IMG/VR virus record: IMGVR_UViG_3300029707_000042
Coordinates: 1 to 9,839 of that record
DNA: 9,839 nt
Direction: 5' to 3' (one strand)
Source of the DNA: a virus
Lineage: Duplodnaviria > Heunggongvirae > Uroviricota > Caudoviricetes
Shown: positions 1 to 9,839 of the stretch, one piece after another
Layout: each line of letters starts with the position of its first letter
How positions within the stretch are numbered: position 1 is the stretch's first letter
The notes under the pieces: model-generated
What the model was told of the DNA's origin: nothing
What the model saw: the letters and a program-made list of their open reading frames with translations, nothing else
Databases searched by the model: none
Translations under genes and position numbers: made by a program

Positions 1-48
1 TTCGTTGACTTCAACAACGCGCACCCCGTGGTGGTAATCCTGAGCCAT
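1..48 (-). CDS. Phage tail sheath protein (P2 gpFI-like), first 16 codons only; the gene continues beyond the window start
   Basis: Reverse complement of 1..48 reads ATG GCT CAG GAT TAC CAC CAC GGG GTG CGC GTT GTT GAA GTC AAC GAA = MAQDYHHGVRVVEVNE. This matches the N-terminus of P2-type sheath proteins as I recall it (MSDYHHGVQVLEINE...). AGGAGG Shine-Dalgarno on the minus strand at 58..63, 9 nt upstream of the ATG. Only 16 residues are visible, so the call depends on recalled similarity. Confidence 0.5.
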   Translation of the reverse strand, partial: MAQDYHHGVRVVEVNE

Positions 49-123
49 AGTGGCGAACCTCCTGATTGGATTAGGCTTCGCCCTATGTTGAAGTGATTGT
101 GCCTGACAAACAGCTAAACGCAG

Positions 124-143
124 TTGTGTCGTTATTCACACAA
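124..143 (-). promoter_or_regulatory. Putative P2-type late-promoter activator site (TGT-N12-ACA dyad) upstream of the sheath gene
   Basis: Sequence ttgtgtcgttattcacacaa at 124..143 has perfect inverted 6-bp arms TTGTGT/ACACAA and contains TGT (125..127), a 12-nt spacer, and ACA (140..142). The dyad centre is about 85 nt upstream of the sheath ATG at 48, compatible with the roughly -55 position of Ogr/Delta-type activator sites in P2/P4 late promoters. No strong -10 hexamer is evident. Confidence 0.3.
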
Positions 144-190
144 AATAACGGTATTTGTCTGCTTGCAGGGATAATCAACATAATGCTGAT

Positions 191-757
191 TCAGGGGGAT
201 TCATTGATCTTATTTGCCGGAAATTTTCTATAAATGGTAGAAACGCCTACATCAAAAATCAGTGCAATACGCTGTCTTGATTCTCCGGCCTCGAGTAAAC
301 GCCCAATCTGTGCCCACTGTTCGGTGGTCAACTTAGGACGGCGTCCACCTACTCTGCCTTTGGCACGAGCTGCAGCCAGCCCTGCCCTGGTACGTTCAAC
401 TATCAGTTCGCGTTCCATTTCAGCCAGGGCACCCATGACATGAAAAAAGAAACGGCCCATTGGGGTACTGGTATCAATACTGTCAGTCAGGCTTCTGAAA
501 TTCACACCACGCTGGCGCAACTCTTCTATCAGCGTAACAAGATGCCGCATACTGCGCCCCAACCTGTCCAGCTTCCAGACAACCAGCGTGTCTCCTGCCG
601 ATAGTGTCCTGAGTAGTTTTTTCAGCCCCGGTCTGTCGGACTTAGTGCCACTGATTTTGTCCTCAAAAATCCGCTCACATCCCGCGCAGTTCAGTGCATT
701 ACGTTGCAAATCGGTGTTCTGGTCATTTGTTGACACGCGTACATAGCCAATAAGCAT
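191..757 (-). CDS. pin: Serine DNA invertase (site-specific recombinase, Pin/Gin/Hin/Cin family)
   Basis: Translation MLIGYVRVSTNDQNTDLQRNAL...LVVWKLDRLGRS...GRFFFHVMGALAEMERELIVERT... has the resolvase/invertase catalytic N-domain with the active-site serine in the RVST motif and a C-terminal helix-turn-helix (GVSTIYRKF). It is near-identical in pattern to Gin/Pin as I recall them. The ORF track starts at 763 (MIMLIGY), but the second ATG at 757 has an AGGGGG Shine-Dalgarno at better spacing. Stop codon TGA at 191..193. It lies immediately beside an invertible tail-fibre segment. Confidence 0.95.
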   Translation of the reverse strand: MLIGYVRVSTNDQNTDLQRNALNCAGCERIFEDKISGTKSDRPGLKKLLRTLSAGDTLVVWKLDRLGRSMRHLVTLIEELRQRGVNFRSLTDSIDTSTPMGRFFFHVMGALAEMERELIVERTRAGLAAARAKGRVGGRRPKLTTEQWAQIGRLLEAGESRQRIALIFDVGVSTIYRKFPANKINESP

Positions 758-812
758 GATCATCCCCCTGAATAAAAACCGGAGATGATGCCAGTTAGCT
801 GTTACCTCTGCA

Positions 813-838
813 TTTTCTTAAACGTTGGTTTGGGAGAA
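813..838. repeat. Crossover site A of the invertible segment (pix/gix-like 26-bp imperfect palindrome)
   Basis: TTTTCTTAAACG TT GGTTTGGGAGAA fits the 12-2-12 layout of hix/gix/cix sites with the AAAC..GGTTT core. Its inner half plus core (TTGGTTTGGGAGAA, 825..838) is exactly the reverse complement of 2660..2673 in site B. Confidence 0.8.
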
Positions 839-1321
839 GGCTCAGCGTTACCCGTTGGTGTGCCTGTTCCGTGGCCTTCAGCCACACCACCAACAGGCTG
901 GCTGAAATGCAACGGTGCACCTTTTTCTGCCGAAGAGTACCCAAAACTGGCAAAGGCTTACCCAAAGTTAAAATTACCGGATTTGCGCGGTGAGTTTATT
1001 CGCGGGTGGGATGATGGGCGAGGTGTTGATTCCGCGAGACTGCTACTTTCAAGTCAGGCAGCATCTATCCTTGAACATAACCATGAAATGCAGGGATGGA
1101 CCGGCAACCCACTCATGGCTAGAGATGTTTATTCATCCATGTCATCCGTATTTGCGGTGCAGTTGAGCATTGGCGATGGCGGGTTATTGTATTCGTGGAA
1201 GGATGGGAGTGGAACAACAAATGACAGTAAACGAATGAATAGAACAAATCATGTCAGTTCCGGCGCCGGTGATGGTAGCCCGCGAAACATTGCATTTAAC
1301 TACATTGTGAGGGCTGCATAA
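827..1321 (+). CDS. Silent alternative tail-fibre C-terminal (receptor-binding) cassette; has no independent start and would be fused to the constant fibre N-terminus after inversion
   Basis: In-frame continuation from the crossover site (GLGE codons are shared with the expressed fibre gene). The product contains the conserved fibre motif ...CNGAPFSAEEYPKLAKAYP...LPDLRGEFIRGWDDGRGVDSAR typical of Mu S / P1 S / P2 H / lambda Stf C-terminal regions. Stop TAA at 1319..1321 is directly followed by a tail-fibre-assembly gene. The ORF-track start at 785 is judged an artefact. Confidence 0.75.
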   Translation, partial: GLGEGSALPVGVPVPWPSATPPTGWLKCNGAPFSAEEYPKLAKAYPKLKLPDLRGEFIRGWDDGRGVDSARLLLSSQAASILEHNHEMQGWTGNPLMARDVYSSMSSVFAVQLSIGDGGLLYSWKDGSGTTNDSKRMNRTNHVSSGAGDGSPRNIAFNYIVRAA

Positions 1322-1924
1322 ATGGAACAGGCTATTTTGGGAAAAGACGGTTACGCTTTAAATGATGGGGAAATCATCGTACATAACTATGATGGCGAAA
1401 CGCGGGAATATATTTCTACATCAACTGAATATCTCGCTGTCGGCGTCGGTATCCCGGCATGTTCTTGTTTAGATGCACCAGTTACACATAAAGCTGGTTA
1501 TGCAATCTGTCGCTCTGTAGATTTAAATTCATGGGAATATGTGCCAGACCATCGCGGTGAAGTTGTCTATAGTACCGAAACGGGAGATACCAAAGAAATC
1601 ACAGTTCCGGGTGATTACCCTGAAAATACAACCACTATCGCCCCGTTAACGCCATACGATAAATGGGATGGTGAGAAATGGGTGACGGATACCGAGGCAC
1701 AGCATAGCGCCGCAGTAGAAGCGGCAGAAGCACAGCGCCAGTCGCTGATTGATGCTGCAATGGCTTCCATCAGTCTGATTCAACTGAAATTACAGGCTGG
1801 GCGGAAGCTGACGCAGCCAGAAAACACCCGACTTAACGCTGTGCTGGATTACATTGACGCGGTGACGGCAACAGATACCAGCACAGCGCCGGACGTCATC
1901 TGGCCTGAACTGCCGGAGGCGTAG
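1322..1924 (+). CDS. Tail-fibre assembly protein (chaperone) partnered with the silent fibre cassette
   Basis: 200-aa ORF starting one nucleotide after the cassette stop. C-terminus ...LDYIDAVTATDTSTAPDVIWPELPEA matches the Tfa-family C-terminal pattern and resembles the C-terminus of the convergent gene 1896..2336. Position is equivalent to Mu U' or e14 TfaE. Confidence 0.85.
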   Translation: MEQAILGKDGYALNDGEIIVHNYDGETREYISTSTEYLAVGVGIPACSCLDAPVTHKAGYAICRSVDLNSWEYVPDHRGEVVYSTETGDTKEITVPGDYPENTTTIAPLTPYDKWDGEKWVTDTEAQHSAAVEAAEAQRQSLIDAAMASISLIQLKLQAGRKLTQPENTRLNAVLDYIDAVTATDTSTAPDVIWPELPEA

Positions 1925-2336
1925 GCCATTCAATATCTGGCGCACCGGAAGTATCGACCAGTTCCAGTGCGTCCAGATAATCCAGCCACAAATTATATTG
2001 CACCAGTTCCTCACCTTTCAGACGACCAATTGATGCTTTACCTGGCCATTGTTTACTGTTGATGTATTCGTTGGCCTGGTTAATCAATTGCTGCTTTTTA
2101 GTTTCGGCTGATGCAATTTGTTCTTCACGTGTTGGTGGAGGAACATCTGCCCAAGCTGGCATTCCGTCGCCTGCGGTAATTCTGCGCTTACCTTCGGGCG
2201 GCGTGTCATGGAAATATTCCCTGAAAATAGCTTCGTCTATGTCTACGCCTTTTCCTTCTGGCCATTGCCCTTTTGCAGCGTAAACAGACTGTAGGGCGTA
2301 AGGGTACGCCAGATTATCAATATATAAATATTTCAT
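1896..2336 (-). CDS. Tail-fibre assembly protein (chaperone) for the currently expressed tail fibre
   Basis: 146-aa ORF. ATG at 2336 lies 2 nt after the fibre stop (TAA 2339..2341). C-terminus ...LDYLDALELVDTSGAPDIEWPTPPAVQAR is Tfa-like. The 3' end overlaps the convergent tfa gene by 29 bp. Confidence 0.85.
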   Translation of the reverse strand: MKYLYIDNLAYPYALQSVYAAKGQWPEGKGVDIDEAIFREYFHDTPPEGKRRITAGDGMPAWADVPPPTREEQIASAETKKQQLINQANEYINSKQWPGKASIGRLKGEELVQYNLWLDYLDALELVDTSGAPDIEWPTPPAVQAR

Positions 2337-2338
2337 AA

Positions 2339-2962
2339 TTAACGCCCTTTCGCAAAGAAAGCTCCACCTTCAAATCCATAGTTACAATGCGCAACAAATC
2401 CTGTTCGCGTCCAGTTAGTTGCGCCCCACATATTCCCACCACCAAAACCGCCGTCATATACAATCACTACGTATGGCTCCTGCGTAAAAGGAATGGGGAA
2501 AGTCACATTTGTAGATACCGCCGCGGCGTTAGTCGGGAAATTAATTCTTCCCCACTGTTCAATTGAACCATCAGGCAATTTTTGCCAGCCAGATCCTGAT
2601 GAATAAGCTGACATGTCTGGTATCTGATTCGCCCCAGTCCCCACATTCCTTTTCGCCGCTTCTCCCAAACCAAGGTTTTCGAGAGCCGTTTTCACCGTGC
2701 CATCCGATTTGATATCGCCAAACGGATTCTTGCGGCTTAACAGCAGCGCACGAAGTGCGGTAAGCAGCTGGTCATGCCGCCCTTTCTCCAGGCTGGCACC
2801 GGAGGCCTCCACCACGCTACAAAGTTCTTCCTGCAACATGTCAAAGTAGTCATCATCCAGATCGGTGGCAGGTGTGCCGGTCTGGGGGTTACCACGGGTA
2901 AAACCGTTCTTACCCGCGCCGAACTTATCCTTCTGCGCGGTTTTCGTGTCTATACGATGCAT
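2339..2962 (-). CDS. Short tail-fibre protein in its current orientation (constant N-terminal part 2673..2962 plus variable C-terminal part 2339..2672 inside the invertible segment)
   Basis: 207-aa ORF. ATG at 2962 with GGAG Shine-Dalgarno 6 nt upstream, starting 3 nt after the stop of the upstream gp48-like gene. The N-terminus (..[28 protein letters not shown]..) resembles the fibre N-terminal constant region of Mu S-type fibres. Crossover site B lies inside the coding sequence at the ENLGLGE codons. Confidence 0.85.
2660..2685. repeat. Crossover site B of the invertible segment (pix/gix-like), located inside the tail-fibre coding sequence
   Basis: TTCTCCCAAACC AA GGTTTTCGAGAG has the 12-2-12 layout. 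2660..2673 is the exact reverse complement of 825..838. The outer halves differ from site A (7 of 12 positions match). Confidence 0.8.
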
Positions 2963-2965
2963 GGA

Positions 2966-3550
2966 TTACTCCGGATATTTAAAAATTACGTAGGTATGCG
3001 AAGGGCAGAGTTTGTTAAGCACGCACTCGACAACGGTGTCGCCCCAGATACGCAGTGCGGAATCACAGGGATCGCCACATGTCATCCAGGTGGTGTTGGT
3101 GGCGGCTGGCATGTTGACCTGCCAGTAATACCGCCATTCCGGCGCATTCACTGCGTCAGTACAGGCCGATGAGCAGGTGAACGTGCTTTTATCGTATCGC
3201 GTGATAGTGGCGTCTGGTCTGCCCAGGGCAGCAAGCTGTGCAAGATAAAAATCCTCATTGATGCCGCCCGCCAGATTAACCTTCGCATCCAGCCGTTGCT
3301 GACGCTGGCGAAGGGTCTGTGTCCCTGCGGGAATACATTCATCCGGCAGACCGCACAGACGCTCCCAGCGGTTTATCAGTTCAGTGGTGGTGCGCGGATC
3401 CAGCTCCCGCATCAGGGCATCCGCACGCTGATGAACGCGGGTTAATGACGGTGCCGCACCGGCAATCGCCGGATCGCTGACTGACCACGCCGGACCGGGC
3501 GGCAACAGTGCCGACAACAGACGGATATAATCATCGTTTGTCACGTCCAT
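2966..3550 (-). CDS. Tail/baseplate protein, Mu gp48 / P2 gpI-like (DUF2313, YmfQ-like)
   Basis: 194-aa ORF. Start overlaps the stop of the J-like gene. It sits immediately upstream of the tail-fibre gene, as in Mu (gp48-S) and P2 (I-H). Call is from position, size and general sequence character, not a verified alignment. Confidence 0.75.
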
Positions 3551-4590
3551 GAAATCGTCCCCAGAACCGCCAGCTCATTTTTTGCAATGGAGATATTGTC
3601 CGCCGGGGCAAGCAACTGATGGCTGTATTCCCCGTTCGCACCGGAAATCGCTTCACTGATACGTGACACCTTCAGTTCTCCCTGCGGATAACCATCACGC
3701 AGCAGGAACGAACGCAACTCGGCGGTGATGGCAGCCCGTATTTCCGGTGTGTCCGGCGTCACGCGGATATGAAAATCCACTTTATGCGCCACCGGCCTGA
3801 ATACATACAAATCAGAGCCTGCCACCGGGGCCAGTGGCTCGATATGTTGTCTTGCCGCCGTTTCCGTTGACTCTTCCGGAATGGGATTAATCAGGTCACT
3901 GCTGGCAATCATCACACCGACAGTCCCCGTTCCCATCCAGTGTCGGTATGTCCATGCGCGGGTAATGCCGGGCACTTCTTTAGCCCAGACGACATAGTCC
4001 CCGTCAGCCCCGCCCTGAGGCGTCCAGTAATACCGCTCAATGACGCGGGCGCGCCACGTTTCCAGCTCTTCAGTATCAAATCCGCCTGTCAGGGTGTCAG
4101 CCACACCGGAAGACGGCAGACCATTCACCGGCGTGACCAGGATTAATGCCGTACCGTCGTCAGCGTTACCGACCGCGCCTGTAGTTGAGCAAGTGATCGG
4201 CACACGCAGGACACCACCAGTGCTGGTTGCATCGGCAGTTGCCGTGTACTGAACCAGGTCATCGCGCTGAATAACACTCCCGGCGGTCACCTTCAGGCCA
4301 TCGCTGACACCTTCCCAGCGCATATACCCGCTGGCAGCCGTGGCCCCCTTGCGCGGACACCGTTTCATCGCAGCATGTCGCGCCAGCCAGGACTCATCGC
4401 ACAGATCAGGCAGCATGTTCATTGCCAGATAATCGATGTAACCGTAAACCGTATGCAGCGCCGCCGCATACACCTTTGCCCGCACGTCTTCATCCATGCG
4501 CCGGAGCGTGTCGCTGACGTCCAGCCTGGCGAATAAATCGTTACGGAGCATACTGATATTTTCTGCCAGCGTCNNNNNNNNNNNNGCCAT
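3541..4590 (-). CDS. Baseplate J-like protein (Mu gp47 / P2 gpJ family); 5' end uncertain because of the N run
   Basis: About 340-350-aa ORF with the conserved position between the gp46-like and gp48/I-like genes. The true start is either ATG 4590 (upstream of the N run) or the internal ATG near 4551 (ISMLRND), which would give a short overlap with the preceding gene like the other junctions in this operon. Confidence 0.8.
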
Positions 4591-5005
4591 GCGTTATCGC
4601 ACTCCACAGATCATCAAAAGAAATCATTACCGGTCCGTCACGACGCCAGAGAGTGATACTGTTACCCAGTTCATTAATCCCGGTGCGGCGGATATCCAGA
4701 TCAATACGGGACACCACGCCATCATCAATCATCCATTGCAGGCATTCGCGGATATACCCCCTTACCGTCTGCACCAGCTGATTGGTCAGTTTGCTGCGCT
4801 GAAGCAGCCACAGTCGGGAGCCGTAACGGTCATTCTGTACCGCAGGCCAGGTATCCCCCCACCATCCCATCGGGACGTCGGCGTTGTCATCAGGCTCCGC
4901 CCGCCGCCAGGTAAACAGGGAAATCACCACGGCGCGGGTCAGCGGATCCAGCGGTGCGCTGGCGCAGGTGCGTTTACCGTTCACCGTCAGCCACAGTTCC
5001 ATCAT
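4541..5005 (-). CDS. Baseplate protein, Mu gp46-like (phage GP46 family); 3' end interrupted by the 12-nt N run
   Basis: ORF starts with ATG at 5005, overlapping the stop of the V-like gene, and is about 150 aa. Small protein between the spike (gp45/V) and J-like genes, as in Mu. The C-terminal about 14 codons are uncertain because of the Ns at 4574..4585. Confidence 0.65.
   Translation of the reverse strand: MMELWLTVNGKRTCASAPLDPLTRAVVISLFTWRRAEPDDNADVPMGWWGDTWPAVQNDRYGSRLWLLQRSKLTNQLVQTVRGYIRECLQWMIDDGVVSRIDLDIRRTGINELGNSITLWRRDGPVMISFDDLWSAITHGXXXXDAGRKYQYAP
4574..4585. other. Run of 12 ambiguous bases (N): assembly gap or masked sequence
   Basis: Seen directly in the sequence (gtcnnnnnnnnnnnngccat). 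It falls at the junction of the gp46-like and J-like genes. Confidence 0.99.
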
Positions 5006-5550
5006 GCCTCCATCGCTTTATCAGGTTTGTCGGTGTTACTGCCCTGACCGTTCTCTCTGTGACGATGCCCGTTATAGGCAAGCCGCATCGCTGACATGGT
5101 GGTGCCGCTGGAGTCGCACAGGTCTTTCACCTGTCCTGTCACTTCCAGGTCCATTTCAAAACGTGCTTTAGGTGAATTGCGAAACGTGATCGTTTTACCT
5201 GCACCGTCCACCACGATCCCCTCCCGGGTCAGCGTCACGGACTGCCCCTGATCGTCATAGACAGCCACCTCACCCGTCTGCAGCCCTTTCAGGCGGTAAC
5301 GCCGATCCGACACCGTAACAACCACCGCATGAGAACGGTCGCCATCCGGAAACAACACCACCGCTTCCGCACCGCTGTTTGCCCTTGCGGTAAAACCGTA
5401 AGGTTCAAGATGTTCAACCCCGGCTTTGGGTTCACCGGCAATCAGGGACACATCCACGGTCTGACATTTCGTTGCGGCACTGATGCTTTTCACCACGGCC
5501 CGCCCAATCAGCCCGAGGAGTTGTCGCTGTATGGTTTCAATCGCCCTCAT
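5002..5550 (-). CDS. Baseplate assembly / spike protein, Mu gp45 / P2 gpV-like
   Basis: 182-aa ORF. The start ATG shares one nucleotide with the upstream stop (TGATG). The C-terminal region contains an H-x-H motif (YNGHRHRENGQG), like the metal-binding apex of gpV/gp45-type spikes. Position between the gpD-like and gp46-like genes. Confidence 0.8.
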   Translation of the reverse strand: MRAIETIQRQLLGLIGRAVVKSISAATKCQTVDVSLIAGEPKAGVEHLEPYGFTARANSGAEAVVLFPDGDRSHAVVVTVSDRRYRLKGLQTGEVAVYDDQGQSVTLTREGIVVDGAGKTITFRNSPKARFEMDLEVTGQVKDLCDSSGTTMSAMRLAYNGHRHRENGQGSNTDKPDKAMEA

Positions 5551-6629
5551 CAGAACGGGTCCTCCTGTACTCTGGCTTTTTTCTTTTTCCGCGCGCCGGG
5601 ATCTTCGGGTTCAGGCAGATAAGCATCAGGCGGGCCGACACGGATTTCCGTCAGGGTGCCGTTCTGGTCCTGAGTAAACGTGACTTCCGAAACAAGCAGT
5701 TCGGTATTGTCGAAACCACAGACCGGATCAAAGACAATCACCCGCTGGTTGGGCTGCCACAGCGTACCGTTACCCTGTCGCCAGCCCTGCACCACATAGG
5801 TGGTTTCATCCGTCCGCGCCGCCCGTTGTCGGGCTTCAAAGTCAGCACGCGCAATACAGCCTGCCCCCGTGGCCTGCCCTGTCTGCCTGATATACATCGG
5901 ACGGTAACGGGCAATAAATGCGTCCTCTGTGCGGGCCCGCAGCGCGGTGGTGGTGGCCTCACCGAAATCATCGTCGTTTCCGGCACGCTGCCCCGCCACC
6001 TGGTAAACTGAAAACCGCTCCCGGATACTCTTCTCCGTATCACAGGAAAGGATGTTTTCCCCAAGTACCAGCGCGGTATGTGCCCGCGTTGAGCCAATAC
6101 CGCCAATCACCAGCCTGCCGTGCGGGTCGTCGTAAGCCAGTGCCTGCTGCTGACCGAGTATTTTGTTGATTACCTCAATCACCGTTTCACCGTGATCAGG
6201 CTGGACGTCAGGAATAACACCCGACGGCGCACCGTTGTTCACCACCTCAATGCCGAAGGGCGCAGCAAGCGCCTGCGCAATCTGTACCAGCGATCGTCCG
6301 TTAAACTGTGTCGGTTCGGCTGCACAGTCAATCAGATCAGCGGTTAGACTGCGTCCGGCAATACCGGTGCTGACCGAACGGGCATCGTAACGAACGGGCG
6401 TCGCCTCCACCCAGCCGGTGATCACCAGCTCATCACCAATCAGCACTTCCACTTTTGAACCGTTTTTAATGCGCGGCTGAAGCGTGGTGATACCCTCATC
6501 TCCCGGCCACTGGCGGGTGATCTCCACACTGAAATCCCGCGCCAGTCGTTCAACACCGGCACCGATGCGCACCGATGTCCAGCCATTCCACTCCCGGCCA
6601 TTTACCCGTAGCGTGACGTTATCGTTCAT
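5550..6629 (-). CDS. Tail/baseplate hub protein, Mu gp44 (P) / P2 gpD-like
   Basis: 359-aa ORF. ATG at 6629 overlaps the stop of the gp43-like gene. Size and position match Mu P / P2 D-type proteins. Basic C-terminal tail (ARKKKKARVQEDPF). Confidence 0.75.
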   Translation of the reverse strand: MNDNVTLRVNGREWNGWTSVRIGAGVERLARDFSVEITRQWPGDEGITTLQPRIKNGSKVEVLIGDELVITGWVEATPVRYDARSVSTGIAGRSLTADLIDCAAEPTQFNGRSLVQIAQALAAPFGIEVVNNGAPSGVIPDVQPDHGETVIEVINKILGQQQALAYDDPHGRLVIGGIGSTRAHTALVLGENILSCDTEKSIRERFSVYQVAGQRAGNDDDFGEATTTALRARTEDAFIARYRPMYIRQTGQATGAGCIARADFEARQRAARTDETTYVVQGWRQGNGTLWQPNQRVIVFDPVCGFDNTELLVSEVTFTQDQNGTLTEIRVGPPDAYLPEPEDPGARKKKKARVQEDPF

Positions 6630-7999
6630 TGCACTGGCACCTTCAGAGGGATCACCGGCACAAAGCCGGGATGCGTAATGGCATTACGCCGGATAATGTC
6701 CGCGTCACGCGCCGCGTTATCAAACCAGGTCGCCGCCAGCACCAGCGCGGGTAAAACCTCATCCGGCGTGCGCTGAATGATCCGTGCAGACTGTTCAAGG
6801 CGCGTGTTGATATCCGCATTCAGATCTGCTTTCACCCGGCGCAGCGCCAGAAACAGCGCATCACTGGTTGTACGGGACAACTCCTTATCAATTGCCGTAT
6901 TCAGTGTGTCGCGAATGTCAGTCAGTTCTTCCCACGTCGGCAGGTCAACCGTGTTTTTCACCGCCGGTGCATTGTTCAGTGCCGGATGCGTGACGGAAGG
7001 CCAGCCAGTGCTCTGCGCAGGTGTTGTTGCCTGCCCCACTGCGGAATTCTGCATCACCGCGGAAGTTGTTGGCGCAGGTAATCGGGTGACGGCATACGCC
7101 GCTTCGCTGATTGCGGTCGTACGAAGGGTGCTGGCAACCACGTTACGCTGCTGCGTCGCCGTGGCGGTGGTTTTACTGTCCGTTTTCCAGACGCCGCGCG
7201 GTTGCAGATCGCTGCCGAGGCTGACACCGGAAAGCGTTTTGATCATGGTGACCAGGTCGCTGGCGTTACCATAAAGGCGTTTCCCGGTACGCCACATTTT
7301 CTGCACCTGCTCAACGAAATTTTTGCCTGACGATGGCGGCGGCAGAAGTACCGAGATATCCCCCTGCAACAGCCTGGCGGCATCCGATACGGCAGAATCC
7401 ACCACTTTCATCGCATCAGAAACATACCCCAGCATTATGCTGGCATTACCGATAACGTCGTTCTGCACGAAATCCGCCACACCATCGATACTGAAACCGC
7501 TGAAGCTGTCACTGATGCAGTCATCCAGTGCAGAACAGGATGACATCAGCGTCTGCGCCGTCGCCGCACCTGATGTGGGGTAAGAGAGTTCTCCTGCTTC
7601 GACAAACTTCAGGTCAAAGCGGACAATACGCCCTTCACTTTTCGATGTGCTGACCCGAACTTCCCCGTCAACACAGACTTTCAGCTCACCATATGTCGGG
7701 TGGACAAGCGTGCCGGGACCGGGTTTATTCAGCGCTTCAATCAGGCGATCGCGCTGGTCAAAGCAGTCATCTCCCACCACATAAGCTGTGATGGACGGGC
7801 GGAAAGTGACTTTTCCCAGATCTTCGGTATAGGGCTTGTCGCGGTTCGGGTATTCATGTGTTTCCACACGGCGACCGGTTCCCGCACTTTCTTCTTCAAC
7901 CTTAAACGGCACACCTCGAAATGATGCTTCAAGTAGCTTTTCACGCCAGCCACTTCGAGAATCAGAGGATAGGTACGAAGAAATATGAGAAAAATCCAT
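6626..7999 (-). CDS. DNA circulation protein, Mu gp43 (N)-like tail protein
   Basis: 457-aa ORF. GAGGTG Shine-Dalgarno 5 nt upstream of ATG 7999. N-terminal region (..FRGVPFKVEEESAGTGRRVETHEYPNRDKPYTEDLG..) resembles the DNA-circulation N-terminal domain family. Position between tape-measure and gpD-like genes as in Mu and SfV-type tails. Confidence 0.75.
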   Translation of the reverse strand: MDFSHISSYLSSDSRSGWREKLLEASFRGVPFKVEEESAGTGRRVETHEYPNRDKPYTEDLGKVTFRPSITAYVVGDDCFDQRDRLIEALNKPGPGTLVHPTYGELKVCVDGEVRVSTSKSEGRIVRFDLKFVEAGELSYPTSGAATAQTLMSSCSALDDCISDSFSGFSIDGVADFVQNDVIGNASIMLGYVSDAMKVVDSAVSDAARLLQGDISVLLPPPSSGKNFVEQVQKMWRTGKRLYGNASDLVTMIKTLSGVSLGSDLQPRGVWKTDSKTTATATQQRNVVASTLRTTAISEAAYAVTRLPAPTTSAVMQNSAVGQATTPAQSTGWPSVTHPALNNAPAVKNTVDLPTWEELTDIRDTLNTAIDKELSRTTSDALFLALRRVKADLNADINTRLEQSARIIQRTPDEVLPALVLAATWFDNAARDADIIRRNAITHPGFVPVIPLKVPVQ

Positions 8000-8014
8000 G
8001 GCGTCACCTCAAAT

Positions 8015-8040
8015 AAAAACCGCGTGTAAACGCGGTTTTT
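8015..8040. terminator. Rho-independent terminator, structurally bidirectional; terminates the inserted gene 8056..8544
   Basis: AAAAACCGCG-TGTAAA-CGCGGTTTTT: GC-rich CCGCG/CGCGG stem extended by A5/T5, with a 6-nt loop, followed by a T/U tract on both strands. It lies 15 nt after the stop of the inserted gene and ends about 12 nt before the gp43-like RBS. Confidence 0.7.
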
Positions 8041-8055
8041 TATTAGGTAATAAAA

Positions 8056-8544
8056 TTAACGATCATAATCAACATTATGAGTATCTATTCTACATGATGA
8101 ATAAGTAATTCCGCTTTCACCACTAATATTTACGCCAGCCTTTACCTTCCCTGTTTTCGTAACATCAACAAAGAATTGCCCTCTTGGCATTTTAAATGCA
8201 AAAGAGAAACCAATAATTTCCGAGTCAAAGTTATTTTCATCCTCACTAATTGGTACAATAAAAGTCAATGGTGCAGATTGTGAGTTATTTTCAAAATCAA
8301 AAGCACCAATGCTTTTATTAAACTCGTAGGATGCTTTTTTTATTAAAAGAGTTCCACTTGCCGACTTTGCTGGGCATATTACAGACAGTCTATTTATTCC
8401 CTCTACATCTAGATCTATATTCTTATCCGCTGAAGTTTTAACGTTATCTATAAAGTATGTAGCAAGCTGCTTTTCCGTTACTGGCTTCGCAAAGGAGTTT
8501 AATGGCAGTCCTACAGCCAACAACAATATAAACATTTTCTTCAT
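8056..8544 (-). CDS. Inserted (moron-like) gene for a small secreted protein of unknown function, with a Sec-type signal peptide
   Basis: Reverse complement of 8521..8544 is ATG AAG AAA ATG TTT ATA TTG TTG (MKKMFILL...), with TAGGAGAG Shine-Dalgarno 3-4 nt upstream. The N-terminus MKKMFILLLAVGLPLNSFA-KPV is a classic signal peptide with an AxA-like cleavage site and no lipobox cysteine. The gene is visibly AT-rich compared with the flanking tail genes and is followed by its own terminator. The ORF track begins at an upstream GTG (8577), which I consider less likely. A long ORF in AT-rich DNA is unlikely to arise by chance. Confidence 0.7.
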   Translation of the reverse strand: MKKMFILLLAVGLPLNSFAKPVTEKQLATYFIDNVKTSADKNIDLDVEGINRLSVICPAKSASGTLLIKKASYEFNKSIGAFDFENNSQSAPLTFIVPISEDENNFDSEIIGFSFAFKMPRGQFFVDVTKTGKVKAGVNISGESGITYSSCRIDTHNVDYDR

Positions 8545-8608
8545 ATTCTCTCCTACATTCAGCACAAACTTTACCACTCAATAACCCTACTTGATTAAAG
8601 TAGTTATA
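8545..8608 (-). promoter_or_regulatory. Putative promoter region for the inserted gene (possible extended -10 TGgTAAAGT); also contains a short hairpin CTACTT-gatta-AAGTAG at 8587..8603
   Basis: 63-bp AT-rich spacer between the tape-measure stop (TAA, 8609..8611) and the inserted gene's ATG. On the minus strand, TGGTAAAGT (complement of 8568..8576) resembles an extended -10 element. No convincing -35 hexamer is present. Speculative. Confidence 0.25.
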
Positions 8609-9839
8609 TTATCGTCTGAATGGAGAATACCCCACATCGTGCGTGATTTTCATCAGGGGATCGGCTTTGCCCGGTACATCAATTATCTTCATACCTGGCG
8701 GAGCATTCTCGAACGTGACTTTCAGCTCGCTGTGCTGTGTCATGGAAGAAGATGGATTCAACAGCGGAACATTGGGTTTGTACTGACTCAGGCTGGCCTG
8801 ATACTGCTCGTACTCTTTACGATCAAAAAAAGGCGTCCAGTCTGAAGCCAGAAACAGCCCTTTATTATCCAGCCAGTTAACCGTATCTTCAGGAACAACA
8901 CTTTCCAGAGTATCTTTAACCGGCTCATACATCAGGGTTCCCAGAAAACCATATACCCCGGCCTTCCCGATAAAGCCGCGGCCTTTCCCCATCAATCCCG
9001 TTTCTGCCGATACCTTCCCCAGCGTACGCATCTCTCTGGTCACTGCGGTAATGGATTTGGTAACGTCAGCAACCCATTTGGTTGCCATAAACAGGGCAAT
9101 CGCTTTCAGAACAGTTTCCCATCCCCCCATCATCTGCGCCGTTTCATCCACCACGTGCCAGACTTTTTTTATGACAGGACCTACGGTTTCCCAATTATCA
9201 ATAATGAGGTAAGCGCCACCAACCAGAAGAGCAATCAGCCCCTTAGCAGGCGTCATATTCATCACACCGCCGAGAACTTTCATGATTCTGGACAAAGAGC
9301 CTGCAGCGGCCCCCACTGTCAGTAAAGCCAGACCGATTTTAGCAATGGTCTTAACGAGCTCCGGGTTTTCACGGACAAACGTTCTCACTTCCTCAAGGAG
9401 CGGTTTTACCGCTTCAAGACCATCATTAACCTCAGGAAGAAACGTTTCCCCCAGAGTGGAAGAAATGGCATCAAGTTGATTTTGCAGAAGTAAAAGCTGG
9501 TTTTCCGTCGTCGCTGCCCTCGAAGCATATTCCTTCTGCATCGAACTGCCATACTGCTGGGAATCCGCAACCCGCCTGAAGTTGGTACGCAACAAATCAA
9601 GGTTAGTCAGCAGAGGAGCTATCGCGCCCAGAGACTCTTTCCCGAACAGGGCATTCAGCACAGCTGCCTGTTTTTCTTTAGGCACTTTAGCCATCGCATC
9701 CAGTACAGACAGCATGGTTCCCCGGGCATCTTTCTGCATATCAGCAGCTAATTTCTTCGGATTGATCCGCAGAAAACGTAATGCCTGTTTCTGCGATTTT
9801 GTCGCGGAATTTCCCGCGGTCAGGGAAAGCATGAAGTTC
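8609..9839 (-). CDS. Tail tape-measure protein, C-terminal part (the gene continues beyond the window end)
   Basis: Open frame running to the window edge with no upstream stop. The product has the usual tape-measure character: helical, Q/A/L-rich N-proximal part and a hydrophobic glycine-rich segment (IAKIGLALLTVGAAAGSL...GLIALLVGGAYLII). Position is immediately upstream of the DNA-circulation and baseplate genes, as in Mu-type tails. Confidence 0.8.
   Translation of the reverse strand, partial: NFMLSLTAGNSATKSQKQALRFLRINPKKLAADMQKDARGTMLSVLDAMAKVPKEKQAAVLNALFGKESLGAIAPLLTNLDLLRTNFRRVADSQQYGSSMQKEYASRAATTENQLLLLQNQLDAISSTLGETFLPEVNDGLEAVKPLLEEVRTFVRENPELVKTIAKIGLALLTVGAAAGSLSRIMKVLGGVMNMTPAKGLIALLVGGAYLIIDNWETVGPVIKKVWHVVDETAQMMGGWETVLKAIALFMATKWVADVTKSITAVTREMRTLGKVSAETGLMGKGRGFIGKAGVYGFLGTLMYEPVKDTLESVVPEDTVNWLDNKGLFLASDWTPFFDRKEYEQYQASLSQYKPNVPLLNPSSSMTQHSELKVTFENAPPGMKIIDVPGKADPLMKITHDVGYSPFRR

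Follow-up and report, generated by a model that had tools for sequence, protein, structure and literature searches.

In the invertase-bearing P2-like phages 500465-1 and Cartapus, the late genes are annotated in the order V-W-J-I-H-G-G′-H′-invertase-FI-FII-E-E′-T-U-D-ogr (G-G′ corresponding to tfa-tfa′), and the same order is found in the P2-like prophages at ybjL of ECONIH4, TUM9803, MS 115-1 and O25b:H4. Translocation of a cassette between P2-like and Mu-like prophages has been described within one strain lineage (bioRxiv 10.1101/2022.05.07.487787). Here we analysed a stretch of 9,839 nucleotides (the window; positions 1 to 9,839 of the IMG/VR virus record IMGVR_UViG_3300029707_000042, Caudoviricetes), in which a Din-type invertase gene, pin, is followed by the first codons of a P2-type tail sheath gene, FI, and in which SfV/Mu-type tail genes lie on the far side of a tail-fibre cassette. 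The original prediction had placed a mosaic junction between two tail modules at positions 1–190, i.e. between pin and FI. Comparison with related loci instead identifies 1–190 as what ordinarily links pin to the F (tail sheath) operon in P2-like (Peduoviridae) prophages: the pin 3′ flank, a presumed late promoter region of the Ogr type (pF) and the beginning of a gpFI-type sheath gene. By the same comparison, the real seam with the SfV/Mu-type genes lies 0.6–2.5 kb further in, at the edges of a shared flip-flop cassette. The unusual feature of the window is, as judged from sequence, that its P2-type arm (pin plus F operon) is joined via a single Din-type cassette to an SfV/Mu-like tail module, and not to the P2 genes V-W-J-I-H.

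The junction between pin and the sheath gene

An ATG is found at position 48 of the minus strand, and the reverse complement of positions 1..48 translates to MAQDYHHGVRVVEVNE, i.e. the opening 16 codons of a tail sheath gene of the P2 gpFI type, which runs off the window. The gap between this start and the stop codon of pin (49–190) is 142 bp, as originally stated. In 669 E. coli records at least 80% of positions 1–800 was covered, the identity reaching 100% in nine; among the matches listed, the annotated ones call the open reading frame (ORF) under this interval phage tail sheath protein. Isolated phages match the interval as well (500465-1 at 99.6%, KP12 at 98.4% and Cartapus at 97.9%). In the ECONIH4 prophage, the DNA of which is 100% identical over 1–839, the full ORF encodes a sheath protein of 390 amino acids (aa). 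Aligned with P2 gpFI along its whole length (393 aligned positions), this protein shows 68% identity; within the window, residues 4–16 are identical to residues 3–15 of P2 gpFI at 9 of 13 positions. The full-length sheath protein of the relatives carries the Pfam domains Phage_sheath_1 and Phage_sheath_1C. Considering the sheath-annotated DNA at 100% identity, the 68% identity to P2 gpFI over the full protein and the sheath domains in the relatives, the proposed likeness to the N-terminus of gpFI is consequently judged not to be a matter of chance. In every examined relative that reaches past position 1 (97.6–100% identical DNA), FI is followed by FII-E-E′-T-U-D(-ogr).

The invertase gene pin, present as the allele of P2-like prophages, occupies 191..757 on the minus strand and encodes 188 aa from the ATG at 757, as in annotated relatives; the upstream ATG at 763 extends the ORF (191–763) to 190 aa. 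Its product carries the Pfam domains Resolvase (PF00239, 2e-53) and HTH_7 (PF02796, 1e-15) and matches Mu Gin (3UJ3/4M6F) over its full length (E 1e-92, residues 1–184), with the catalytic Ser9 present and the motif VRVSTNDQ conserved. From its domains, the Gin match and the catalytic serine, Pin is predicted to be a bona fide Din invertase, and its high identity to Gin further leads us to predict that a recombinational enhancer bound by Fis lies towards the 5′ end of the gene. On the DNA level, pin is 100% identical to that of P2-like prophages at ybjL; it is ~79–82% identical to pinE. The exact 188-aa protein was listed in 9140 index blocks, from which 10 distinct neighbourhoods were shown, and all ten displayed the order V-W-J-I-H-cassette-pin, 142 bp, FI-FII-E-E′-T-U-D. 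On this evidence the step from pin to FI is the canonical order of invertase-bearing P2-like phages, and the mosaic junction originally assigned to 1–190 has to be given up. For annotation this means that a P2-type sheath gene right behind a Din invertase is normal and needs no flag; what should be flagged instead is a P2-type invertase/F-operon arm paired with a non-P2 fibre gene across one cassette.

The intergenic region itself (49..190, minus strand) holds the presumed Ogr-dependent late promoter pF, proposed from the position of a dyad and from conservation. Late promoters dependent on Ogr/Delta carry a TGT-N12-ACA dyad ~55 nt upstream of the transcription start, and a perfect copy, TGTGTGAATAACGACACA, is present at 125–142 (142..125 on the minus strand), with a GGAGG ribosome-binding site at ~58–62 on the same strand. 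The dyad centre lies 85.5 nt before the FI ATG; in the reference record of P2, the annotated activator site of pF is 82.5 nt away. The motif was not enriched in the window, with three occurrences found versus 2.77 expected from shuffles, and no recognisable −10 element was found at the candidate promoter within 49–190. The region is conserved in Cartapus and ECONIH4, i.e. among invertase-bearing P2-like phages, and the promoter DNA around the dyad could not be aligned with P2 beyond the position of the dyad. Thus, of the P2-style late-promoter dyad in the original prediction, its presence at a P2-equivalent distance stands, whereas the motif count alone proves nothing.

Module borders at the crossover sites

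Local BLAST of the window against fetched loci split it into three modules. Module A (1–839) is P2-like and 100% identical to the P2-like prophage of ECONIH4, module B (820–2678) is an invertible tail-fibre cassette 98.7% identical to cassettes of other prophages, and module C (2659–9839) is SfV/Mu-like and 99.6% identical to the SfV-like B25FEP prophage at dusA (L005), with 99.1% identity to the APEC37 prophage and 97% to phages SfIV, SfV and SfII. Matches to module A stop at 839 and those to the cassette begin at 820; on the right side, the SfV-like matches begin at 2659 and the P2-like matches stop at 2676–2684. These overlaps are the crossover sites themselves, which are marked by an inverted repeat (820–839 / 2659–2678) and are written here as 12+2+12. 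The left, invertase-side 26-bp site (813..838) consists of the outer half TTTTCTTAAACG, a TT core at 825–826 and the inner half GGTTTGGGAGAA, and the right, fibre-side 26-bp site (2660..2685) of the inner half TTCTCCCAAACC, an AA core at 2672–2673 and the SfV-type outer half GGTTTTCGAGAG. The two sites are inverted, with identical inner halves and the core AA/TT. All flipped-cassette alignments mismatch at 824 and 2674, from which it follows that the outer half-sites stay with the flanks and, therefore, that the true borders are the core dinucleotides at 825/826 and 2672/2673. The breakpoint beside pin that had been proposed is thus not supported by the identity comparison, in which the P2-like match continues at 100% through pin to 839 and the seams fall at 813–838 and 2660–2685. 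Conversely, the proposed link between recombination and the invertase locus is borne out, the borders coinciding with the crossover sites.

In all loci compared the inner half TTCTCCCAAACC and the core AA were invariant, and the outer half varied by context: SfV-type fibres were accompanied by GGTTTTCGAGAG, P2 H by GGTATG(C/T)GAGAA and invertases by CGTTTA(A/T)G(A/G)AAA. The window carries an outer half of the P2-arm type at the pin side and one of the SfV type at the fibre side.

Measured from core to core, and delimited by Pfam and by comparison with prophage cassettes, the invertible cassette B spans 827..2671. Its genes, assigned by Pfam, comprise an alternative fibre tip with a Collar domain (~842–1321, plus strand), a tfa gene (1322–1924, plus strand) with a 200-aa product, a second tfa gene (1896–2336, minus strand) for a 146-aa assembly protein, and the expressed gp53-like fibre tip (2339–2671, minus strand). 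In the current fusion, the tail fibre gene (2339..2962, minus strand) joins an SfV-type constant N-terminal part (2674–2962) to the gp53-like tip of the cassette (Pfam Gp53-like_C). On the plus strand, the ORF listed for the silent alternative tip has its ATG at 785, outside the cassette, in the part of the P2 arm that separates pin from the crossover site (785–841). This start is artificial and results from an ORF being called over the site, as the tip is expressed only once inversion fuses it to the constant part of the fibre. The exact proteins of this junction ORF (785–1321) and of the 200-aa tfa gene were not on record in an exact-protein look-up.

The cassette as a unit was found at 98.7% identity, in the opposite flip state, in SfV-like (L004/L011; T43), P2-like (L010) and E217/Pam3-like (L014, L016) loci, so that both orientations relative to the flanks are seen by comparison between genomes, not inside one population. 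The exact 146-aa Tfa protein is likewise shared, being present in SfV/Mu-like (L009, L011, L012, L018), P2-like (L010, L015), E217/Pam3-like (L013, L014, L016) and mixed (L017) loci, i.e. in at least four unrelated contractile-tail backbones. The cassettes that carry it are always bounded by the same crossover sites and adjoin a Din invertase. An identical protein across these backbones shows that the cassette has spread horizontally, and very recently, as one unit with the crossover sites at its ends. Because the 98.7% identical cassette is known from both SfV-like (L011, T43) and P2-like (L010) backgrounds, cassette B is not assignable to either parent, and the seam between A and C may sit at either site or anywhere inside B.

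Two loci related to this cassette showed junctions of their own. In L017 (GCA_029115715.1, JAEFLB010000001.1; 6478–12000), the end of a full-length lambda-type tape measure gene (853 aa) overlaps a convergent Din invertase gene, with the same cassette and a P2-ish baseplate next on the other strand, which makes this another junction of two tail modules at an invertase locus. The exact 207-aa fibre protein of the window was found only on one metagenome contig (L008; ENA ERZ827420 NODE_529, coverage 3.7), which is collinear with window 2329–9839 at 99.7%; the right part of B together with C accordingly exists elsewhere in the same flip state. At the position equivalent to window 2329, the tfa start, this contig switches to DUF3793 and flavodoxin genes (10625–11844 of the contig) and is apparently chimeric.

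The FORC_042 composite prophage and a proposed fusion of prophages

The whole window was found in none of the complete E. coli genomes or phage records; the best places start at position 296 or beyond, and those genomes therefore carry their own pinE. Similarly, modules A and C occurred together in none of 50,697 phage records, and all 10 distinct SfV-like contexts with the exact gp48 protein of the window finish with their own invertase, followed by the attachment region. A synthetic query, in which the full FI and pin were fused to window 2690–4570, was searched in 5426 complete E. coli genomes. Both halves were found together in a single genome, FORC_042 (NZ_CP025318.1), and the window's own alleles were joined in none.

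The FORC_042 prophage is located at ssrA and reads smpB-ssrA-hyp-ogr-D-U-T-E′-E-FII-FI-pin-cassette-SfV fibre, after which it continues as ymfQ-J-gp46-V-P-N-hyp-tape measure-chaperone-tube-Mu-type sheath and so on to capsid-protease-truncated portal-IS3. Phage Cartapus matches 10.1 kb of this prophage at 99.96% identity, in a stretch that starts inside ssrA and takes in the cassette (the arm ssrA attR-ogr...FI-pin-cassette). The identity to Cartapus ends at 23492, inside the fibre-side crossover site of FORC_042 (23468–23493), and SfV-like identity begins at 23467; at least 60 nt of the inner flank of this site are Cartapus-identical, with an outer half-site and flank of the SfV type. In the window and in FORC_042 alike, a P2-type pin/F operon and an SfV-type fibre flank one cassette and the P2 baseplate genes are absent between them, in agreement with the earlier suggestion that two tail modules meet here. 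Compared with the window, the alleles of FORC_042 are 97.6% (A) and 97.3% (C) identical and its cassette is a different, shorter one; as alleles and cassette differ, the comparison suggests at least two independent origins of this architecture, provided that the window is real. The original prediction had offered two readings of such an arrangement. A Mu-order baseplate block grafted onto a P2-like H-G-pin-FI backbone is inexact, as the constant part of the fibre is SfV-type and not P2 H and the cassette belongs to neither backbone. A second contractile-tail module fits better, given that FORC_042 has a P2-type arm beside an SfV-like prophage with its own Mu-type sheath, tube and tape measure, but the seam is not located at 1–190, where that module was thought to start.

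The explanation that we favour, and consider reasonably probable, is that the window contains the P2-like invertase/F-operon junction at 1–190 within a P2-type arm that was fused to an SfV/Mu-like tail module via the shared cassette, likely by recombination between two prophages. A P2-like genome and an SfV-like prophage, each with a Din inversion system and the same or a very similar cassette, would have recombined through that cassette. This could have occurred in tandem lysogens at one attachment site, where a deletion would drop the invertase end of the SfV-like prophage and the P2 genes from integrase to H, as implied by the layout of FORC_042; alternatively, a circular P2-like genome may have been inserted into an SfV-like prophage. 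Both P2-like phages of the Cartapus/500465-1 type and SfV-like prophages of the T43 type integrate at ssrA with their tail genes pointing to ssrA. Tandem lysogeny followed by deletion between the two inversion loci, with loss of pinE, the SfV right end and the P2 int-to-H region, thus explains the structure of FORC_042. As a consequence of such an event, the P2-type Pin would now be the sole invertase beside an SfV-type fibre gene and, as Din invertases cross-complement, it should keep flipping the cassette of that gene. The locus would also carry a second, partial set of contractile-tail genes.

The exchange itself would have proceeded either via RecA-dependent homologous recombination inside the 0.8–1.9 kb shared cassette, which is the favoured mode, or via invertase catalysis at equivalent crossover sites. 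In the latter case Pin (or PinE) would have recombined the equivalent sites of the two prophages in a conservative site-specific reaction, through deletion in a tandem or fusion with a circular phage genome, and homology between the cassettes would be unneeded. Borders that lie exactly at the core dinucleotides are consistent with this, and in FORC_042 the 99.96% Cartapus flank reaches the core, with the SfV-type outer half-site directly next to it. The closest SfV-like relative of FORC_042, JNE132847 (99.5%), moreover has a cassette that differs from that of FORC_042, the homology being limited to 86 bp at 87% plus the site; all sites share the identical inner half and the asymmetric core AA, and the identical cassette is bounded by these sites in each of its unrelated tail backbones. 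Still, we regard an invertase-catalysed fusion as distinctly unlikely. For topological reasons, wild-type Din invertases are limited to inversion between inverted sites in cis, and only the Fis-independent mutant Hin-H107Y has been shown to delete about as often as it inverts (PMC3798978, PMC4817059); homologous recombination anywhere in the shared cassette predicts the same borders. The homology that this would require is at hand, as the cassette of the window is known at 98.7% in both backgrounds (P2-like L010 and SfV-like L011), and a Cartapus-type half-cassette is contiguous with the SfV fibre gene in the SfV-like prophage L026, at 95.8% across the site. It is on these grounds that the RecA route is preferred. 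The position of the breakpoint was considered as a means to decide between site-specific and homologous exchange, and rejected, because the same cassette in both prophage families gives identical apparent borders.

Several observations weigh against a fusion of two prophages having produced the window. The A-B-C arrangement is absent from all phage records and from 5425 of the 5426 complete E. coli genomes. Genome, viral and metagenome contig collections gave no match to an exact pattern of 86 nt spanning the left crossover site, and no SfV/P2 hybrid was present at 30 distinct places located by exact matches to the Tfa, gp48 and Pin proteins, which include 20 distinct contexts from draft or complete sequences. 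An undeleted tandem intermediate was not found in complete genomes either, a weak negative in view of the narrow query used (T43-type SfV right-end cargo plus Cartapus RES/integrase). Prophages with the A allele of the window (100%) sit at ybjL and those with the best C alleles at dusA; going by the K-12 gene strands, the two loci are 1.27 Mb from each other and directly oriented. Simple recombination between them would delete DNA with lethal effect, and a real event would need a tandem or circular-insertion configuration, none of which was observed for the alleles of the window. A large chromosomal inversion between ybjL and dusA was likewise considered and rejected, as the direct orientation, on the K-12 strands, would require a lethal deletion or a multi-megabase duplication. 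Furthermore, the continuation of FI into FII...ogr is predicted from the relatives, the sequence past position 1 not being part of the window, and wild-type Din invertases are biased against deletion and fusion, the invertasome aligning the sites for inversion (PMC3798978).

Some of these observations would equally be accounted for by an assembly chimera, in which separate, normal P2-like and SfV-like prophages share a near-identical 1.86-kb cassette, present in both orientations in the population, and the assembler crossed from one to the other, so that A-B-C existed in no cell. The junction is in no collection searched and its alleles are not joined in any of the complete genomes; ybjL prophages typically carry the A allele and dusA prophages the C allele, and recombination between these two would not be viable. 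The cassette occurs at 98.7% in both prophage types, borders at the edges of a repeat are exactly what a repeat-mediated mis-join would be expected to give, and the related low-coverage contig L008 is demonstrably chimeric at 2329. However, most assemblers break at a two-copy repeat of 1.86 kb, whereas the window crosses it cleanly on both sides; the complete genome of FORC_042 has the same architecture with an interpretable origin, and the cassette of the window is an allele of its own, within which no change from one known cassette variant to another is seen. We therefore rate a chimera as rather doubtful, although it retains appreciable weight.

The FORC_042 composite is a defective fusion with further decay, from which the P2 baseplate and head genes are absent. 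Its SfV-like half (L020, 37583–40314) has a truncated portal gene that abuts an IS3 and a ypjA remnant. This bears on a further explanation, according to which the window would derive from a stable and viable hybrid lineage, i.e. a functional phage with SfV-like head and tail genes and a P2-like F operon. Phage genomes are mosaic and the cassette is common to many tail types, but none of the 50,697 phage records combines A and C, the FORC_042 analogue is defective (truncated portal, IS3, P2 baseplate/head genes absent), and two complete sheath, tube and tape measure sets of different types would have no obvious use in one virion. Such a lineage is thus highly improbable.

On the favoured reading, a fusion of two prophages through the shared cassette, the window adds a further case to the prophage mosaicism and fusion already known, and is ordinary in kind. 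The case illustrates how a shared promiscuous cassette can serve as a common stretch of DNA by which unrelated prophages fuse, delete or exchange tail arms; such cassettes are at the same time a likely source of contig mis-joins in short-read assemblies. A more far-reaching proposal, which we put forward as speculative and give little credence, is that Din tail-fibre crossover sites act as portable inter-phage recombination sites, of which the window and FORC_042 would be two independent products. If this were true, occasional invertase exchange between equivalent sites, either of two unrelated prophages or of a prophage and a phage genome entering the cell, would fuse or truncate prophages and move tail arms and cassettes among P2-like, SfV/Mu-like and other myovirus backbones. 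Should the invertase act rather than RecA, the crossover sites would allow phages to exchange modules, and prophages to decay, by a route that does not depend on homology.

The SfV/Mu-type tail genes and comparison with known systems

The SfV/Mu-type tail module, assigned from Pfam and DNA identity, spans 2966..9832 on the minus strand. Its genes are gp48/YmfQ (2966–3550), baseplate J/gp47 (3541–4590), gp46 (4541–5005), gp45/V (5002–5550), the gpP hub (5550–6629), the DNA-circularization gene gpN (6626–7999), a cargo ORF (8056–8577) and the C-terminal part of the tape measure (8609–9832), which runs off the window. The succession of Pfam domains on the minus strand (PhageMin_Tail, DNA_circ_N, GpP, Gp45, GP46, Baseplate_J, Mu_Gp48) confirms the Mu/SfV order from tape measure to fibre that had been read originally. 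The ORF at 8056–8577 (minus strand) encodes 173 aa with a signal-peptide-like N-terminus, MKKMFILLLAVGLPLNSFA, and has a G+C content of 0.34 versus 0.55–0.60 in its neighbours; it gave no Pfam match. In other SfV-like prophages, the slot between the tape measure and DNA-circularization genes holds differing genes or none, and the ORF probably represents cargo or a moron. Inside the overlap of gp46 and baseplate J, 12 consecutive N (4576–4587) break both ORF translations and presumably reflect masking, not biology. No RNA family match was obtained with Rfam in the window.

Among the described systems, the invertase-bearing P2-like phages (500465-1, a Wadgaonvirus; Cartapus, an Elveevirus; and Klebsiella phage KP12) are 97.6–99.6% identical to the window over 1–839 and share with it the same pin, the 142-bp spacer, the FI start and the invertase-side crossover half-site. 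They differ from it on the far side of the cassette, which in these phages consists of P2 H-I-J-W-V with the outer half-site GGTATG(C/T)GAGAA and in the window of an SfV-type fibre, gp48 and gp47 with GGTTTTCGAGAG. Bacteriophage P2 itself has a gpFI to which the sheath homologue is 68% identical and an activator dyad at an equivalent distance from the ATG; unlike the window, however, it is without an invertase and has fun(Z) between G and pF. The SfV/SfIV/e14-type prophages, which use the PinE system, match the other side, being 97–99.6% identical over 2659–9839 with the same order of tape measure-N-P-gp45-gp46-gp47-gp48-fibre-cassette. Their cassette is followed by their own pinE and then by the prophage end or attachment site, whereas that of the window is followed by a P2-type pin and a P2-type sheath gene. 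The closest counterpart in overall layout is FORC_042, which likewise combines a P2-type FI-pin, one cassette and an SfV-type fibre and baseplate, with the seam at a crossover site, but has other alleles and another, shorter cassette. In relation to the Din family as a whole (Mu Gin/G, P1 Cin/C, e14 Pin/P and Salmonella Hin/H), the window presents the same features: its serine invertase can be aligned to Gin over the full length, its two 26-bp sites are inverted and have a core of 2 bp, and between them lies a segment with alternative fibre tips and assembly genes, both flip states of which are found among the relatives of the window. The inversion system itself is thus the same, and it is only the flanks that come from two phage families.

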